A stretch of DNA of 64,000 bases from Eledone cirrhosa (lineage: Eukaryota), in contig OZ024741.1 in assembly GCA_964016885.1 (NCBI GenBank), positions 297,042,001-297,106,000 on the forward strand, written 5' to 3'. A program made the translations under genes and the position numbers. The notes below the pieces were generated by a model. That model saw only the letters and a program-made list of their open reading frames with translations. It was not told the DNA's origin and made no database searches. Below, in pieces: positions 14,926 to 30,683 of the stretch; positions within the stretch are counted from its first letter, which is position 1; every line of letters begins with the position of its first letter.

Positions 14926-15695
14926 AAACACATATACACACAAATATATTTCAATTTCGACATTGAAGACCTGAACAAGCTATTTAGTTCATTCAGTTTG
15001 AATGTATAAATTGGGCATGAAAATTTTAGATCTGCTAAGGATTTGCAAGCAAATCCACAGATGCTGCAAGAGTGAGGTTTACAAGATAATGTTAGAGTAA
15101 GTGACAGAATTATCAAAATCAGAATAGTCATAGGAAATAGGATGACAACAATTACCTCAAGCTACACACCATAAGCAGGACTAAGTAGGGAACAAAAGGT
15201 CCATTTCTATGAGCAACTTTTACAGACAACCTCATTACAGATGATTGGCATCTTATCAACCCCAGCTGGTGACTTCAATGAGCATATTGAACGGCACCAA
15301 GATGAATACACTGGACTACATGGAGGATATGGTTATGGCTCGAGAAATGAAGAGGGAGTGAGGCTCCTAGAATTCTGTGATGCAAATGAACTATTTGCAT
15401 CACTAATTTCAAGAAACCGGCCAGCCACCTGATCACCTATATGGACATTTTACTCGTTAAAAAATATGACAGGCAGATGATATTGAACACTAAGTCCACC
15501 AGAAGAATGCGACACACAATTAGTTATTTGTGACATCAGAATAAACACAAGATGGAGCAAAACATCTAGGAAAATATAGAGAAGTAGAGTATGGAAACTA
15601 AAAGACCTGACTGTTCAATATAGGTTCAGCAAAGTTCTATGTGATGCATATCACAAGAGGGAAAAGTCAGATATACATACATACATATATATATA

Positions 15696-17971
15696 CCAGA
15701 TAGAAAAATGCGTACAGCAAAAAAAAGTAATATTGTTGGAATATAAACCTTTAAAAATACAGGACAAGAAACTAAAATAAAACTTTAAAAGAATAGGACA
15801 AGAAACTAAGATAAAACTTTAAAAGAATAGGACAAGAAACTAAGATAAAACTTTAAAGAATTGGACAAGAAATAAAAAATGTTACAATAATATTAGTGGC
15901 AAAATTTTTATTGGTAAAAAATCGAGTTCCACATTCATAGGCTCTGGGTTCCACATTCAGAGGTCGTCGTCAGACTGGGGGGATCATTTGATCCTGGTTT
16001 GAACACCAATTGGGCCATAACCATACCCCTATTTCATCATTCGGCGACACGCCTCATGTGTCATGCATAATGTGAATGGACCCATGGGCCCATGAGCACA
16101 GATCTTGAGCAGCAGCGGACGGTCTTGTCGTCCCGCTCATCCTTGATCTTGACCAACCCGTCCATCTTCTCCTTGAGTTCAAGTCCGGCAGTCCAGATGA
16201 ATGCGTACCACAGCTTTCTGGTACAGGAAGGGGGAGCAGGAGGACTGGAGGGATGACGGGACAGAGGGAGGGAGGACCGGTGGTTGAGGGAGGTGCCGTA
16301 GTCGGTGGTCAGAGTCGACATCTTGTCCCGGTCGTCTTCTCCATCTTCATCTGGTGTTGCGGGACCAGAAGTGCATTCTTGGAGGAGACCTGCAGCTGCA
16401 TCGGCCAATTCTTCTTGCAATGGTCATTCTGACGGAGCAGAACTGCTCAGCCAACCAACCTCAACCAGAACCAACCGCTCAGGGGCAACGCACAATGAGA
16501 GCATGATAATTATTATGCACTAATCAAGAAGATACTGGGGCATAGCACAGAAACGAATAAAAAAAATTTGCCACTAATATTATTGTAATATTTTTTATTT
16601 CTTGTCCAATTCTTTAAAGTTTTATCTTAGTTTCTTGTCCTATTCTTTTAAAGTTTTATTTTAGTTTCTTGTCCTGTATTTTTAAAGGTTTATATTCCAA
16701 CAATATTACTTTTTTTTTGCTGTACGCATTTTTCTATCTGGTCTACTATTTTTTAAGTGAATTACTGACAAGTGATTGACATTTTAAAGTTCTTTTGAGT
16801 ATAAATGCAATCTAGTTGAGGCAACTGGCTTAAGGACAAAGCTAGTAAATCATGAATGCATTTGAGATGATTAGTGCATAATAGTGAATTGGTGAAACTT
16901 GTGCATTTCAATGGTGTTACAACAATAGATGTAAGTTATATAGTAGTAATACTTTATCATTTTAACTTTTTAGAATGGACAAAAACCCATGCAAAGAAAT
17001 GACTTTGACTGCAGTGATTCTCTCCAATTTACTTACAAAGCAAAACGTGGTCAAATACCTTATCATCTCTGATAAAATGCCCATTGAATCATTGAAAATC
17101 GGATGCATGGAATTCCTCATAAAATACACCTATGAATCGGAAGCCATCACATATATCAATGGATATAGGGAGTTGTTCACACTGGAAGACCATCACTTCA
17201 TTTGTGACTTCATCAGTTATCTCCACGATTATCTCAGACACCCAATGCCATTGATGAGAGGTGATCCAATGTGTGAGCATGTAACTAATCTTATAGAAGT
17301 TGTTATCGACCACCTGGCTTTTAGTGACATTTGACTGATTTGACTGATAATGATGTATTTTAAAAAAGTATGTGTACATTCTTGTTACTATTTTAAGGCA
17401 ATGCAAGCAACAACTATTTAATAAAATTTAAATTTAAAAATGACCATTGTGCATTACTAGTATGATGACATTTTATTAAGTCACAAAATTAGTCAGTCAG
17501 CCATAGAACAAGGATCAGGTGGCAAAAACATTGGCAAAAATTTGTGTCAATTTAAGATTTCCAACATTGTTCAAATGAATCATATCTGGTTTGAAGTCAG
17601 ATTTGTCAAATTTTGACCAATTTTCAATGTTGTGAAGATTGGGCAAGTTCAATTTTTGAATCATTTCTTTCATGCAGTAATTAAACTTTTCCAAACGTCG
17701 TCATTTCTGGATTACCTCCCCTAGAGTCACGCTTACTACTCACTCACTTGAACACAAGATTTATCAGCAAACTTTGATTATAAACTTTTTCCTGCTGGAC
17801 CAAATTTCTAGATTTTTAAGCCAAAAGATGCGTAATGATCTACTGTTCATGCTCATATAAGTTTTATCTCAGTTAAATAAAGTAGAGCCGCGCTGTACTG
17901 TCGTAAACAGACGGTTGCCAACGAAAACACGACCACAACAATATTACTAAACGGACTACCGTCCGTTTAGG
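15696..17971. mobile_element. Unclassified composite insertion with inverted repeat, cargo ORFs and terminal hairpin
   Basis: Inverted arms 15696-15909 and 16562-16741; hairpin 17947-17970; (TA)n at both ends; interrupts an RTE ORF. Confidence 0.75.
16975..17334 (+). CDS. 119-aa protein with SPOP-type BACK-like N-terminus, carried in the insertion
   Basis: ILSNLLTKQNVVKYLIISDKMPIESLKIGCMEFL resembles the SPOP BACK pattern [39 protein letters not shown] at 16800, candidate intron 16931-16973, AATAAA at 17420. Confidence 0.55.
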   Translation: MDKNPCKEMTLTAVILSNLLTKQNVVKYLIISDKMPIESLKIGCMEFLIKYTYESEAITYINGYRELFTLEDHHFICDFISYLHDYLRHPMPLMRGDPMCEHVTNLIEVVIDHLAFSDI

Positions 17972-20900
17972 ATATATATATATAGATAATAACTGGAATT
18001 TCTTACATGACAACTTACTGCCGGCTACTGATGAAACTTGTGCTGGAGCAGAGTTCCAACCAGACAGAGAGTGACCTGGTGGTAGAACAGCACAGTAGAT
18101 AAGGCCATTAGAGACAAAAGACTAGCATGGAAGGCTTGGAAAAAGAGTGGGAGTAGGGAAGAATATACAGCCGCTAAGAGAGAAGCTAGACGTCAGGTGT
18201 ACTTAGCACGCAGGGAGGCTGAGAGTAGGAGGTTTGCCAATGTTCTGCGACGGGAAGATCAGAGGCGTGCGGTGTTCCACATTGCAAGGCAGTGTGTCAA
18301 TGCAAATCAGGATGTTGTTGGAGATAAATGTGTCCGGAATGATGCCGGTGTACTTAATGTCACGAATGATCAGAAAAAGGAGGCCTGGAAATGTCATTAT
18401 GATGAATGTGGAGAACGAATGGGAGAGAGAGAAATTACCCTCAGTAGATCCGACAGAGGGACCAGCTATTGAGATTGACGAATATAGGGTCCAAGAGGCA
18501 ATTAAGGAAATGAAAAATGGTAAGGCTGCTGGACCATCGGGAATAGTTGCTGAGATGCTGAAGGCATCAGGGGACGTAGGCACTAAACTGGTTGCACGCA
18601 TCATCAATCAGGCTATATATGGTGGTGTCGTACCCAAAGGCTGGTGCAGCAGTATTCTCATAAATTGCTACAAAGGTAAAGGGGATACTCTGGAGAGGAG
18701 CAATTATAGGGGTATAAAACTGATGGATCAGGTTATGAAAGTGGCAGAAAGGATATTAGCACAACTAATTAGAGAAAGGGTCAAACTAGATGAGATGCAG
18801 TTTGGTTTTGTGCTTGGGAAGAGTACAACAGATTCCCTCTTCTTGGCGAGACAATTGCAAGAGAGGTTCTTAGAAAAAAATAAGCCACTATACTTAGCCT
18901 TTGTTGACCTAGAGAAGGCCTTTGATAGGGTACCCTGATCTGTCATCTGGTGGTCCCTAAAGAAACTAGGTGTTGAGGAATGGCTTGTGAGGACAGTGCA
19001 AACTTTGTACAGAGGTACTGTTAGTAAAGTCAGGGGAGGAATGGAGTTTAGTGAGGAATTCCAGATATAGGTAGGAGTACATCAAGGTTCGGTCCTCAGC
19101 CCGCTCTTATTCTTTATAGTCCTCCAAGACATAACAGAGGAGTTTAAGACTGGCTGTCCATGGGAACTTCTCTATGCTGACGATCTGGTTCTTATAGCAG
19201 AATCAGTAGAGGAGCTAGAGAATAAATTCTGGTTATGGAAACAGCAGTTGGAATCAAGAGGACTGAGAGTGAACCTAGCTAAGACAAAAGTGTTGATGAG
19301 TAGAAAAGAGGACAAAACTCTGATTCCGTCAGGGAAATGGCCATGTTCTATATCAGAAAAGGAACTGGCATAAATTCTATAAAATGCACCCATTGCAGAT
19401 CCTGGGTATACAAGAGATGTAGCGGGATAGCAGGCAAACTAACAGGTAGGGGGAAATATGTATGCAGTAGATGTACAGGGAAATTAGACAGTAGAAGTCG
19501 CATTGATAGACACATTTTTCAAATGCAGGCGGGTACTATAGAAGTGGTGGATAGCTTCCGGTACCTAGGAGATCAGATTAGCATGGGAGGGGGGTGCCCT
19601 GAGGCCATAGTATCTAGAATAAGGACGAGTTGGAAGAAGTTTAGGGAACTGCTTCCTCTGCTGACGAAGAAGGGTTTCTCCCTGCGTACGAAAGGCCGGT
19701 TATATGATGCCTGTGTGAGGAGCGTGATGCTGCATGGTAGTGAGACATGAGCAGCAACTGCAGAAGATATGCGATATTCTTTTTCTATTACCCACTCCAC
19801 CTGGTTTCTTACCATAATTCCTTCGTAATCTAGCTCCTACCTCTGCAGTGGAGCACTGTCCAACCCTACCATGCCATATCCCATATATACACATACATCT
19901 AAACCCATGCTAGCGTGGACGATAGACGTTAAACGATGATGATAATGATGATGATATGACAGTGAAGGTGCGTGGCTGAGTGGTTAGAGAATTGGATTCA
20001 CATCAAAGGTTGTGAGTTCGATCCGCAGGCCGGGCAATGCGTTATGTCCTTGAGCAAGACATTTTAGTTCACGTTGCTCCTTCTACCTGGAGTTGCAACC
20101 GATAGATAGTATTAGCAATTGGAAAGACCAATGTAAACATTGTTCCCTCGGTCCAATTTGACGAAAGTCGATCGAATGTGTATATATATGACATAGAAGA
20201 CAATTGGAAGTTTCTATGAGACAACCTACTACAGGCTACTGAGGAGACTTGTGGCTGGAGTAAAGCCCTAGCCGGACAGAGGGTAACCTGGTGGTGGAAA
20301 AATACTGTGGATAGAGCTGTTAAAGAAAAGATGCAGGTGTAGAAAGATTGAAGAAATGGGGACAAAGATTGATATCAAGTAGCTAAAAGAGAAGCTAGAT
20401 GACAGTTATACACAGCACATAAAGAAGCTGAAAGCAGGAGGTTTGCCCATATATTGCGACATGAGGATCAGAGATATGACGTGTACTGCATCACTAAGCA
20501 GTCCATTCATGATAACCAGGACGTCATTGGAAAAAAGTGTGTACAAAATCTCACCACACCATAAATACAACACTTTCCATTTCCTCTCTCACCTACTGTC
20601 ACCTTTGATATCATCCTTCATACTTCTTCCCACTTCTCTCTCCCTAAATAAGTCTGACTTGAGACAAGTCATCATTCTTCCTCCCTCATAGAATCAATAA
20701 CCAACAATCTCCCTAGTGTCAGTGCTGCAATAAAATGCACCTAATACACTCTGCAAAACAGCTGGTGTTAGGAAAAGCATCCAGTCATAGAAAACTTGCC
20801 AAAAAGGGTTGAGAGGACTCTTCAGTTCTCAGAAGACAACAATTTCCCTCATGACTTGCTAATCATCATGGCCCCCTGTCATCTTCATCATGAAGTTCAG

Positions 20901-27341: not shown

Positions 27342-30300
27342 TCATCATCATCATCATCATCACCGTTTTACGTCCGTTCTTCCACGCTAGCATGGGTTAG
27401 ACGGGTTGTCCTGTTGTGGGCAGTGTCTGGTCGGCTGACCATGCCTTGCTCATACAGGAACTGATCTGGCTTGATTTCTACAGCTGGATGCCCTTCCTAA
27501 CACCAACCTCATTTACAGTGAGTGCTGGGTGCTTTTTCGTGGCGCCTACACGTCCACTTTACAGTGTGGGCTGGGTGCTTTTTTTGCCGTGGCACCTCCA
27601 CGACCACCTTGCGGTGGGGGGAGTGGGGGCATATTGTTTATATGCTTCAGCATGTACCCATGGGAGGTCGGGTACCCTGTATTACTGCGTGACGCCAGAA
27701 GTCACGGTCGTGTGTCATTGTCTTTGAGAGGTGTAGTTGGGTAAGGTCGGCTTTTATCACCTCATCCCAAGTCATCTTGGGTCTCCCCACTCCGCGGTTT
27801 CCATCAACTTCTAGTGCTCTGCACCTTTTTATGCAGCTGTCATCCTTCATACGCATCACATGTCCATACCAGCGCAACCGCCTCTCCTGCACGCAGCATT
27901 TGATTCCTCTTATGCTCAGTCTCTCTCTCAATTCCTTTATGCTTTGTCGTTCACGTATATTACTGTTACACATCCATCGGAGCATGCAGGCTTCGTTTCT
28001 CTCTAATCTACGTAAGTCTTCCACCTTCAGCGCCCAGGTCTCACTACCATGCAACATCGCTGTTCGGATACACGCATCATACAGTCTGCCTTTCATTCTG
28101 AGGGAGAAGCCTTTTGCAGCTAGCAGTGGTAGTAGTTCCCTAAACTTCTTCCATCCCGTTCTTACCCTAGTTATTGTACTTTCTGAGCACCCACCTCCGT
28201 TGCTAATTCGGTCACCTAGGTAGCAGAAGCTGTCTACTGTTTCTACAGGGCCCTCCCAGAGATTGGTGGTACTTGTTTCCTGTGGCTGTTTGCTTGCTGT
28301 TTCAGCACAGCTGCTGCATGTGAATCCTACATTCTTAATTAAGCTTCCTGAGATCCCGCTACATCTCTTGTGTACCCATTGTTTGCATTTGGGGCAGAGA
28401 ATGGAGTTCCTACCTACACCTTTCCTACATACTGAGCAAGGCCATTTCCCTGAGGGGATCTGGGTTCTGTTTTCTTGTCTACTTACAAGGACCTTAGTCT
28501 TTGTCATGTTGACTTTGAGGCCCTTTCTCTCTAGTCCCTGCTTCCAGGTTTGGAATTTATTCTCTAGTTCTACCATAGATTCAGCTATGAGTGCGAGGTC
28601 ATCAGCATACAGGAGTTCCCATGGGCATCCGGTCTTAAACTCCTCCGTTATTGCCTGCAGGACTATGATGAACAGGAGAGGGCTAAGAACAGAGCCCTGG
28701 TGGACCCCAACCTGTACGCTAAATTCCTCGCTATACTCATTGCTAATCCTAACTTTGCTGACTGCTCCCCTATACATGGCTTGTACCGCTTTCACAAGCC
28801 ATTCATCTACTCCTAGTTTTCTAAGAGCCCACCAGATTACCGCACGTGGAACTCTGTCAAAGGCTTTCTCAAGGTCGACAAATGCCAAGTAGAGTGGCTT
28901 ACTTTTAGCTAGGTACTTTTCCTGTAATTGCCTCACAAGGAAGAGGGCATCAGTGGTGCCTCTCCCTTGTACAAACCCAAATTGCATCTCGTCTATATTC
29001 ACCCGGTCCCTAATCAGCTGTGCTATAACTCTTTCTGTTACTTTCATGACCTGGTCCATCAACTTTATACCTCTATAGTTTCCTCTATCTAGTGCATCGC
29101 CTTTACCTTTGTAGCAGTTGACAATGATGCTACTGCACCAATCTTTTGGTATGGCCCCTTCTAGTATTACCTGGTTAACGATACGTGTGGTTATAGTGTG
29201 ACCTACAGACCCAGATGCCTTCAGCATCTCGGCAGCTATACCCGATGGACCGGTTGCCTTCCCCATCTTCATATCTCTGATTGCCTTACTTACTACGCTG
29301 CCGCTGACTTGTACTGCTGGTCCCTCTATAGGGTCTACATGGGGTAGGGTCTCTTCTTCCCATGCATTCTCCTCATTTAGTAATCTATCATAATGACTCT
29401 TCCATGCATCTTTCTTCTCAGCACTTGTGAGGGCAAGCTCACCTTTATCATTCCGGATACACTTCTCTCCAATGACATCACAACTATCTCTGACACACTG
29501 CCTCACAATCTTGAATACCTCTTGTTTCTGGTCCTCACGTTGTAAAACATGCTTGAATTTTCTATCCTCTGCTTCCCTCCTAGCTAAGTATACTTGTCGC
29601 CTAGCTTCCCTCTTGGTCTCTATGTAATGTACCCTGCTCCCCCCGTTCTTCCATTCTTTCCATGCCTGTCTCTTGGCCTTGACTGCTTCATCTACCTTAT
29701 TGTTCCACCACCAAGTCACTCTCCTCCTGCTTGAGGTCTTACTCCAGCCACAAACCTCATCCATCGCCTCTAGTAAGTTATTTTTTAGGAACTCCCAGTT
29801 CTCTTCTACGTTAAATGTCTCTATCTGTTCTTCTTTACTGTCGTAGGCGTTGAGTAAAATATCTTTAAATCTGTTACTGGTTGAGGGGACTTTCAGCTTC
29901 CAGATCTTTCTTCTCCAGGTTGGCCTGTTTCCGGGTTCGTCTAGTTCTGACCGTGAGGTCGCTGACAACTAAGCTATGTTGGGATGTACATTCCTCACTA
30001 GGGAAGGCTTTTGTATTTACGACCGTCCATCTGTCACGTCCTCTGATGAGGATAAAATCTAACTGACTAGAGTGCTCCCCTGATCTATAGGTGATCAGGT
30101 GGTTGTCGGGTTTTTTAAAGTTTGTGTTACATATCGACATGTCATTGGCGTCGCAGAATTCTAGAAGTCTGAATCCTTCCTCATTCCTTGTGCCAACTCC
30201 ATGGCCTCCATGTACTCTATTGAAGCCGTCGCAGTGTTTACCTACGTGTCCGTTAAAATCTCCTGCAATGATTAGGAAGTCCTTGTCGTCTGTTAGAGCA

Positions 30301-30385
30301 GTAGTGTGTATTAGGGACTCGTAAAACCTATCCTTAAGTTCGTCTGGCAGCCCCGATTGGGGTGCGTAAGCTGATATTATTGTGG
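27342..30385 (-). mobile_element. Young 5'-truncated RTE LINE inside a USP8 intron
   Basis: 773-aa open RT frame (27647-29968) with GVHQGSVLSP and LYADD; endonuclease motifs AYAP, GDFN, SQH in an upstream frame separated by one frameshift; (GAT)n tail. Confidence 0.95.
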
Positions 30386-30683
30386 TTAATTATTAAAGGA
30401 ACTTGGTCTTACAAACAGTTAATTATTAAAGGAACTTGGTCTTACAAACTAAATTTAGAAGGATTTAGTAACAGAACTCATTTTCTCATTATTAAACTGG
30501 TGTTTGGAACATAACTTGTTAAAGGTTCTTACAGAAAATTATAATGGAAGGCTTTTAGATAAATATAAACTGTTTAAGAGATAGAAACAGGTTATTTCAG
30601 GTTGTTTGGTTATTAAATGGGTTAAAGCACTTTCCTATATAAAAATAATCAACCAATTATTGAAGAAACTTAGTCATACACAC

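Follow-up and report, generated by a model that had tools for sequence, protein, structure and literature searches.

A 2.3-kb insert in a decayed RTE element as a very probable non-autonomous derivative of an HLE2-type Helitron with HLE1-type termini and an inverted second copy of its 3' end

The window, i.e., the whole 64,000-nucleotide stretch of DNA that was analysed, contains a decayed RTE copy with several stops, the two colinear halves of which are separated by an insert of 2277 bp. When read on the minus strand, the insert starts with A|TC and ends with CTGG|T, the outermost A and T belonging to the host; in the plus-strand view, its ends carry no recognisable signature. The following features were assigned to the locus (window coordinates, strand, description).

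15142-15695, plus: left RTE half (decayed target), with an (AT)n run at its end
15696-17972, minus: whole non-autonomous Helitron, 2277 bp, with the parent's first 275 bp joined to its last approximately 2.0 kb
15696-15699, minus: 3' CTRR terminus (CTGG), followed by the host T (15695); T follows in 52/53 cases
15696-15909, minus: outer arm, representing the true 3' end, with 34-bp tandem units
15709-15719, minus: weak palindrome with imperfect pairing, located 9 nt ahead of the terminal CTGG (z -1.0)
15726-15738, minus: 3' member of the asymmetric inverted-repeat pair (13 bp), 30 nt away from the terminus
15910-16560, no strand: GC-rich spacer of 651 bp between the arms, differing between families and inverted in copy L139
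16561-16742, plus: inner arm, an inverted copy of the 3' end, ending in CTGG and then T
16743-16760, plus: start of the motif beside the inner arm (pyrimidine run, AAG, GCAWYGC), conserved in families A-E
16975-17334, plus: ORF of 119-120 codons, antisense to RepHel, BTB/BACK-like only in language-model features, neutral
17385-17427, plus: repeat (approximately 45 bp) of the inner-arm motif, which with its partner brackets the ORF at 16975-17334
17518-17700, minus: tail of a broken reading frame
17697-17698, minus: deletion junction, with approximately 1.3 kb missing relative to the 3.6-kb form and approximately 9 kb (the whole RepHel gene) relative to the parent
17936-17948, minus: 5' member of the asymmetric inverted-repeat pair (13 bp), which begins 24 nt in from the terminus and shares 2 nt with the hairpin
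17947-17970, minus: 5' hairpin with a 10-bp stem and a 4-nt GGTA loop
17971-17972, minus: 5' TC terminus, preceded by the host A (17973); A precedes TC in 29/30 cases
17973-19773, plus: (AT)n run together with the right RTE half (decayed target)

An earlier note on this DNA had proposed that a discrete insertion splits the RTE element, and the paralogous RTE loci bear this out: 4/11 of them read straight across the site, and a fifth does so with a small insertion. The RTE halves had further been described as joining exactly; they are indeed colinear, but the join is inexact, as the window has approximately 20 extra bases of (AT)n/ACAT repeat compared with the RTE paralogues at the site. The right end, previously set at 17971, actually lies at 17972. 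The other RTE element of the window (27647-30389, minus strand), which had been taken as intact, was found in two frames of 773 and 171 aa that overlap near 29874-29968. Contigs of four runs contained 0 joints across the element at the window site, a count that does not bear on an empty allele.

The termini and the target are highly regular. In the full copies of families A (that of the window copy), B, and C, the host A precedes TC in 59/61 and T follows CTRR in 60/61, and 28 of the 61 touch a (TA)4 run. At least 9 copies have paralogous empty sites outside microsatellites, in each of which A joins T with nothing gained or lost; there is no target-site duplication, a 3-base duplication being observed in only 3/61 full copies. 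The earlier note had called the insert unclassified and fitting no known end structure. The minus strand, however, displays TC and CTRR termini, an A|T target, a 5' hairpin, and 13-bp asymmetric inverted repeats, and the insert is classifiable as a Helitron with an HLE2-type parent.

The perfect 10-bp terminal hairpin pointed out previously is present at 17947-17970 and constitutes the Helitron 5' hairpin (z -4.8; 0/200 shuffles equally stable). Its stem contains a compensatory G-C to C-G swap in subfamily B and is longer in family C; in family D, the GGTA loop and the length of the stem are as in A, and the stem sequence differs. Asymmetric inverted repeats are significant in four of the five family representatives, with lengths of 13 bp in A and B (0/300 shuffles each), 11 bp in D (0/300), and 10 bp in C (2/300); the 7-bp repeat of C' is not significant (47/300). 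At the 3' end, where Helitrons should also have a hairpin, there is no more than an imperfect palindrome of 11 nt (z -1.0), matched in stability by 29/200 shuffles. Four loci (G000:C2:44767211-44767260, L133, L177, and L207) have 5' ends that are duplicated or nested, among them a tandem duplication (29 bp) of the hairpin end, and the same set includes a family member inserted at A|T within the RepHel gene of another member.

The element is multicopy. A search of its own genome (3.0 Gb), suggested in the earlier note, gave 942 candidates, of which 40 were scored; 33 of these are near-full-length, including the window copy, and the others of the 33 match at 92-96%. The mean difference among the 20 best copies is 1.7% outside gaps, a low figure because these copies were picked for likeness. 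Exact 21-mers occur in the genome at least 331 times for the hairpin end, at least 845 times for the arm end, and at least 430 times for the inner arm together with its adjoining sequence (reversed-pattern controls, 0 in each case), and these lower bounds suggest a population of approximately 500 copies.

The first 30 hairpin ends in genome order comprise 7 copies of the 2.3-kb form, 9 of other deletion forms, and 14 of longer forms. The longer forms that were fetched (11 of the 14 and some others) are mostly 3.6-3.9 kb long, and one of them, L130, is 6.5 kb. Full-length parents of 11-12 kb are present in the same genome, and the forms of 2.3, 3.6, 6.5, and 11-12 kb constitute a nested deletion series sharing both ends. 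The 3.6-kb form consists of the parent's first 1.1 kb and last 2.55 kb; at the 5' side, the window form retains the first 275 bp only. Most parts of the element were also found at 95-99% in contigs of two other organisms. Metagenome contigs include nine relatives, some too short to show the ends, and runs X7-X10 gave short low-depth pieces only, which are no basis for spread.

The absence of a transposase reported earlier holds for the 2.3-kb copy, in which none is left, but not for the parent family, which encodes RepHel. The longer parent with RepHel anticipated in the earlier note is represented by L130 and the 11-12-kb elements, which share both ends with the insert. L130 carries a frameshifted RepHel with DUF6570 and Helitron_like_N on the TC-to-CTGG strand, matching approximately 24 loci at 79-100% and a further set at 56%. 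The parent ORF, on the TC-to-CTRR strand, has Pfam matches to DUF6570 (9e-18), Helitron_like_N (1.5e-26), PIF1 (3e-20), and UCH (1.5e-7); Pfam detected no endonuclease (Exo_endo_phos) in the parent RepHel, which has UCH instead. Subfamily B (L171/L172) contains DUF6570, Rep, PIF1, UvrD_C_2, and UCH in 1904 + 507 aa with one stop, and family C (L185/L186), 56% identical to A, contains the same domains as B in a single frame of 2230 aa. RepHel is intact in family C only; none of the approximately 24 coding copies of family A has an intact one, the longest frame being 1174 aa. At least seven copies of family C (L185-L190) have open frames of 2230-2245 aa with 99% DNA identity between copies, and this family was probably active recently.

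DUF6570 is present in 28/29 database relatives of the parent protein. It is a marker of HLE2, in which UCH has been placed in subgroups c and d (PMC11417382). In a quick tree of 27 Rep regions, built without named reference elements and with 11/29 relatives left out, families A, B, and C group together (100) on the DUF6570 side, and six HLE1-type proteins of this genome are set apart (SH-aLRT 100). Membership in the Helitrons and in the HLE2 clade is firm. Among the three origins offered in the earlier note, the Helitron/Helentron-like one agrees with these data, whereas mobilisation by a PLE and a viral derivation fall because the parent is a RepHel element. The 2.3-kb insert, on the minus strand, is thus very probably derived by deletion from an HLE2-type Helitron; it is non-autonomous and was likely mobilised in trans by the RepHel of its parent.

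An ordinary HLE1 Helitron cross-mobilised by the abundant HLE1 transposases would also have TC, CTRR, and A|T, all of which match HLE1, and the genome contains 3704 Helitron_like_N candidates, the best scored of which are HLE1-type. As to descent, this explanation is refuted, since the insert has no sequence in common with 40 HLE1-region loci (L041-L090) at E 1e-3, its colinear parent encodes an HLE2-type protein, and a strong 3' hairpin is lacking; we consider it very improbable.

Two minor observations concern the parent protein. A hydrophobic stretch ending in VELNPGP was observed at L171:2849-3300 and at the N-terminus of the L130 RepHel, i.e., in A and B, and was not seen in C; we take it to resemble the 2A ribosome-skip motif, but with Cys where Asp is usual. 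The closest database relative (P0001, 40% identity, UCH present) carries the label of a protein from a Gammaproteobacteria MAG on a 7-kb contig and is probably a misbinned eukaryotic Helitron.

The families combine an HLE2 enzyme with a mixed set of ends, in which a 5' hairpin and short asymmetric inverted repeats, as in HLE2, stand beside TC, CTRR, and A|T. These last three form the HLE1 signature in PMC11417382, and the present element is like canonical Helitron1/HLE1 in its 5' TC, 3' CTRR, A|T target, and lack of target-site duplication. It differs in its transposase clade, with DUF6570, and in having a 5' hairpin and asymmetric repeats, whereas the 16-20 nt palindrome located approximately 11 nt from the 3' end of HLE1 is not present. 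With Helitron2/HLE2 (the available passages of PMC3627910 and, for FoHeli1-2, of PMC5148889; HELIANO subgroups c-d, PMC11417382) it shares a DUF6570-Rep-Pif1 transposase with UCH. Short asymmetric inverted repeats and a 5' hairpin are ascribed to Helitron2 in the passages of PMC3627910, and the likeness comprises the 5' hairpin, the asymmetric inverted repeats of 8-15 bp with the 3' one approximately 30 nt from the end, the non-autonomous deletion derivatives, and the duplicated or nested 5' ends of some copies. However, Helitron2 inserts ("usually") at T|T or T|C, in contrast to the A|T target and CTRR end found here, and its 5' repeat lies 0-2 bp from the end, compared with 24 nt, after the hairpin, in the present element. 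Helitron2 also has a 3' hairpin, which is vestigial here and likewise missing from FoHeli3-5 in the passages of PMC5148889. A further difference from Helitron2 is the inverted copy of the 3' end, 130-215 bp long and located 0.5-1.1 kb upstream, in the present clade.

The proto-Helentron of Phytophthora infestans combines an HLE2 protein with 5' TT, 3' CTAG, and A|T (PMC4067079); it is the accepted HLE2 exception to the T|T target, and nothing similar to it was detected in 404 genomes (PMC11417382). By description, the present families resemble it in an HLE2-type protein without endonuclease, the A|T target, the lack of target-site duplication, 3' CTAG (B, C, and D; CTGG in A), and a 5' stem-loop upstream of a short inverted repeat. 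The differences are that the proto-Helentron starts with TT rather than TC, its short repeat is 3.6 kb from the stem-loop rather than abutting it, its cargo is SET/TIR rather than UCH, the present host has a large animal-type genome, and a long 3' inverted repeat has not been described for the proto-Helentron. The supplement of PMC11417382 gives five HLE2 insertions for one octopus species; the present host may be a cephalopod, to judge from the features of its genome. Elements of the HLE2-reverse group (FoHeli3-5) have TGCCT at their start and CTCCTGT at their end, with no target preference established in the available passages of PMC5148889. Helentron/DINE-1 (HINE) elements are similar in their 13-bp subterminal repeats, single terminal stem-loop, and internal tandem repeats, whereas the AP endonuclease, TT target, and terminal T runs are absent here.

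The internal part of the insert had been described as cargo of a non-autonomous element, including a minigene. The element is non-autonomous, cargo is present, and the minigene corresponds to the ORF at 16975-17334 on the plus strand; the cargo was, however, inherited from the parent's 3' region and not captured by the 2.3-kb unit. That region contains the spacer as well as the ORF and the SGNH-like tail, each of which is absent or different in B; the A lineage therefore acquired them before the deletions took place. The ORF had no match in Pfam, homologue searches, 1.84 billion representatives, or PDB sequences, and its structural model (pLDDT 53, low confidence) had no fold match. Language-model atlas features of 0.88-0.90 to BTB/BACK clusters make BTB/BACK a candidate identity that is only a lead. 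Changes in the ORF (20 synonymous, 59 non-synonymous, and 1 stop) compare with 18.8, 58.7, and 2.5 expected, omega is 0.94 for the 40 copies not chosen by protein score and 0.72 with all 52, and 42/49 frames are still open, matching the expectation at 0.7% divergence. The ORF is under no selection and decays neutrally, so "cargo genes" is too strong a term for what are captured fragments. The broken frame at 17518-17700 contains motifs that we take to be SGNH-hydrolase-like; neither the SGNH nor the NADAR label of the broken frames had a Pfam match under 0.1.

An unusual feature of the insert is its doubled 3' end. The inverted repeat of approximately 200 bp with an internal second arm was correctly recognised in the earlier note, with the inner arm now placed at 16561-16742, and it is common to related families. 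The two arms align over 182 bases with 2 substitutions and a 1-base gap in an A run, the inner arm having one 34-bp unit fewer. The spacer between them, at 15910-16560, is GC-rich as described before, with a GC content of 52-59% in 16000-16399 vs 25-33% in the arms, and has no Pfam match in family A. Long 3' inverted repeats were found in families A, B, C, C', and D (interrupted in the last), and four related families, whose transposases are as little as 56% identical, have the inner arm. Both arms occur in 3/5 of the family A coding loci examined, both B copies, and 7/8 of the C/C' copies, full or partial, that have a 3' end. Near family D, an inverted repeat of 533 bp was discarded, as it is not the end of that family.

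Within families, the arms match over 170 nt with 0 mismatches in B, 211 nt with 0-1 in C, and 127 nt with 1-4 in C'; in family A, the majority sequences of the two arms show no difference across 126 columns. Between families, the arms differ down to their last bases (CTGG in A; CTAG in B, C, and D). This likeness within and unlikeness between families represents concerted evolution. The spacers, 0.46-1.1 kb long, are unrelated or barely related between families, the A-B similarity being marginal (score 47 vs 35 for the best of 30 shuffles). The B spacer contains a GC-rich frame of 205 codons (L172:1970-2584) with a PHD-finger-like start (language-model atlas 0.82), which is perhaps a piece of a LINE ORF1.

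Near-perfect inverted repeats of 180-215 bp around spacers that vary between families could be accounted for by a separate TIR transposon (MITE) if the 1.05-kb arm-spacer-arm unit had landed at the end of a Helitron. This explanation is largely refuted and appears hardly tenable. The inner-context 21-mers (at least 430) amount to half of all arm 21-mers (at least 845), close pairs among the first 100 listed matches have the inner-context match on one side, and each arm ends in the Helitron's own CTRR, changing with it by family. Moreover, there is no target-site duplication, and no solo copies of the 1.05-kb unit were seen.

Arms that are identical within a family and different between families would also be produced by a replication device, in which the displaced strand folds back and the arm is re-copied at each jump in a rolling-hairpin-like manner, the spacer being a swappable cargo slot. 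The spacer is inverted in copy L139, and in copy L011 the repeat reaches approximately 80 bp beyond the 3' end, and both sides carry variants private to this copy; both cases agree with this device and demonstrate that arm-to-arm exchange does occur. However, the flipped spacer is 1 among approximately 55 cassettes, and private variants in both arms of one copy number 2 vs 0.79 expected in 44 A copies (p 0.17). In the same copies, the within-copy arm distance of 1.6% equals the between-copy distance, and 13 copies show one and the same variant in the outer arm alone; renewal of the arms at each jump is therefore not supported, and we consider such re-copying improbable. The extended repeat of L011 (G000:C3:41434751-41434800) abuts a perfect palindrome with 21-bp arms, and the extension looks like fold-back repair. 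At G000:C1:84724487-84724721, the arm ends are only approximately 215 bp apart, the spacer being gone and a near-perfect palindrome remaining.

A different explanation is that the inner arm lacks a function and is left over from an old self-insertion, being passively homogenised since long inverted repeats convert each other. Self-insertion in the opposite orientation is proposed for Helitron2 in the available passages of PMC5148889. Cassette-less copies with correct ends (L124 and L187) do occur, which means that the cassette either is not strictly required or was lost after insertion. Long inverted repeats are also common in this genome, as in a control set one was found within 20 kb at 8/13 HLE1-type loci; none of five inspected control repeats located just downstream of HLE1 RepHel ends in CTRR|T. 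On the other hand, the inner arm persists in four families down to 56% transposase identity, and the motif beside it, which lies outside the paired part and is not maintainable by conversion, is kept in 6/6 family representatives. In the window copy, approximately 50 bp of this motif are deleted. We take the motif to resemble a splice acceptor facing into the element. The inner arm may have been retained since it or the adjoining motif serves a purpose, the likeliest being that of a stop or splice trap for transcription that comes in from the 3' side, a reading that we hold tentatively and rate somewhat short of an even chance. The passive relic is rated likewise, just below even; at these nearly equal odds, retention for use is favoured.

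In Helitrons, a RepHel provided in trans makes a nick at the 5' TC and strips off one strand as far as the 3' CTRR. In the case of the present element, the RepHel of the parent family would nick at the 5' TC beside the hairpin, one strand would be peeled off with a stop at the outer CTRR, and the rolling-circle copy would be joined into an A|T site without target duplication. The inner arm would have arisen once, in the ancestor of the clade, most simply by opposite-orientation self-insertion or by a fold-back copy of the 3' end, and would owe its continued identity with the outer arm to arm-to-arm conversion, taking place now and then in master elements. Circular intermediates are discussed for Helitron2 in the available passages of PMC5148889; a head-to-tail (CTRR-TC) junction had 0 matches in the assembly.

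The families may even form a structural class of animal HLE2 Helitrons not described so far, with HLE1-type ends, a second inverted 3' terminus serving as a working cis-element, and an exchangeable cargo slot, a proposal that we regard as rather unlikely. Candidate cis roles within such a class may be those of an opposite-strand terminator, a second-strand origin on the circle, or an antisense splice/poly(A) trap. In the literature searched, an HLE2 protein with A|T and CTRR ends was found for Phytophthora only, and no proto-Helentron study on an animal was found among the titles and passages covered. No published report of a long inverted copy of a Helitron 3' end was found in a search outside which lie subscription papers, Repbase, and Dfam, which may hold the family.

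Helitrons are sorted by their ends as much as by their enzymes, and here an HLE2 enzyme occurs with TC/CTRR and A|T in several young families. End-based tools would label the non-autonomous copies as HLE1, and TIR-based tools would label the tail as a MITE. If the proposed class is real, TC/CTRR/A|T ends are not HLE1 markers, and end-based counts of Helitrons mix both clades. The doubled 3' end with its concerted arms represents a natural test of 3'-end recognition and termination in HLE2, and the intact ORFs of family C (2230-2245 aa) are suited to an assay. If the inner arm is functionless, what is left is a correctly classified new Helitron family and little more.

Finally, near-identical HLE1-type Rep matches on one strand recur every 80-200 kb in three regions of the genome, namely G000:C20:3.5-5.2 Mb (14 matches), C27:13.0-15.5 Mb, and C19:35-40 Mb, which suggests very large tandem segmental repeats carrying a Helitron.
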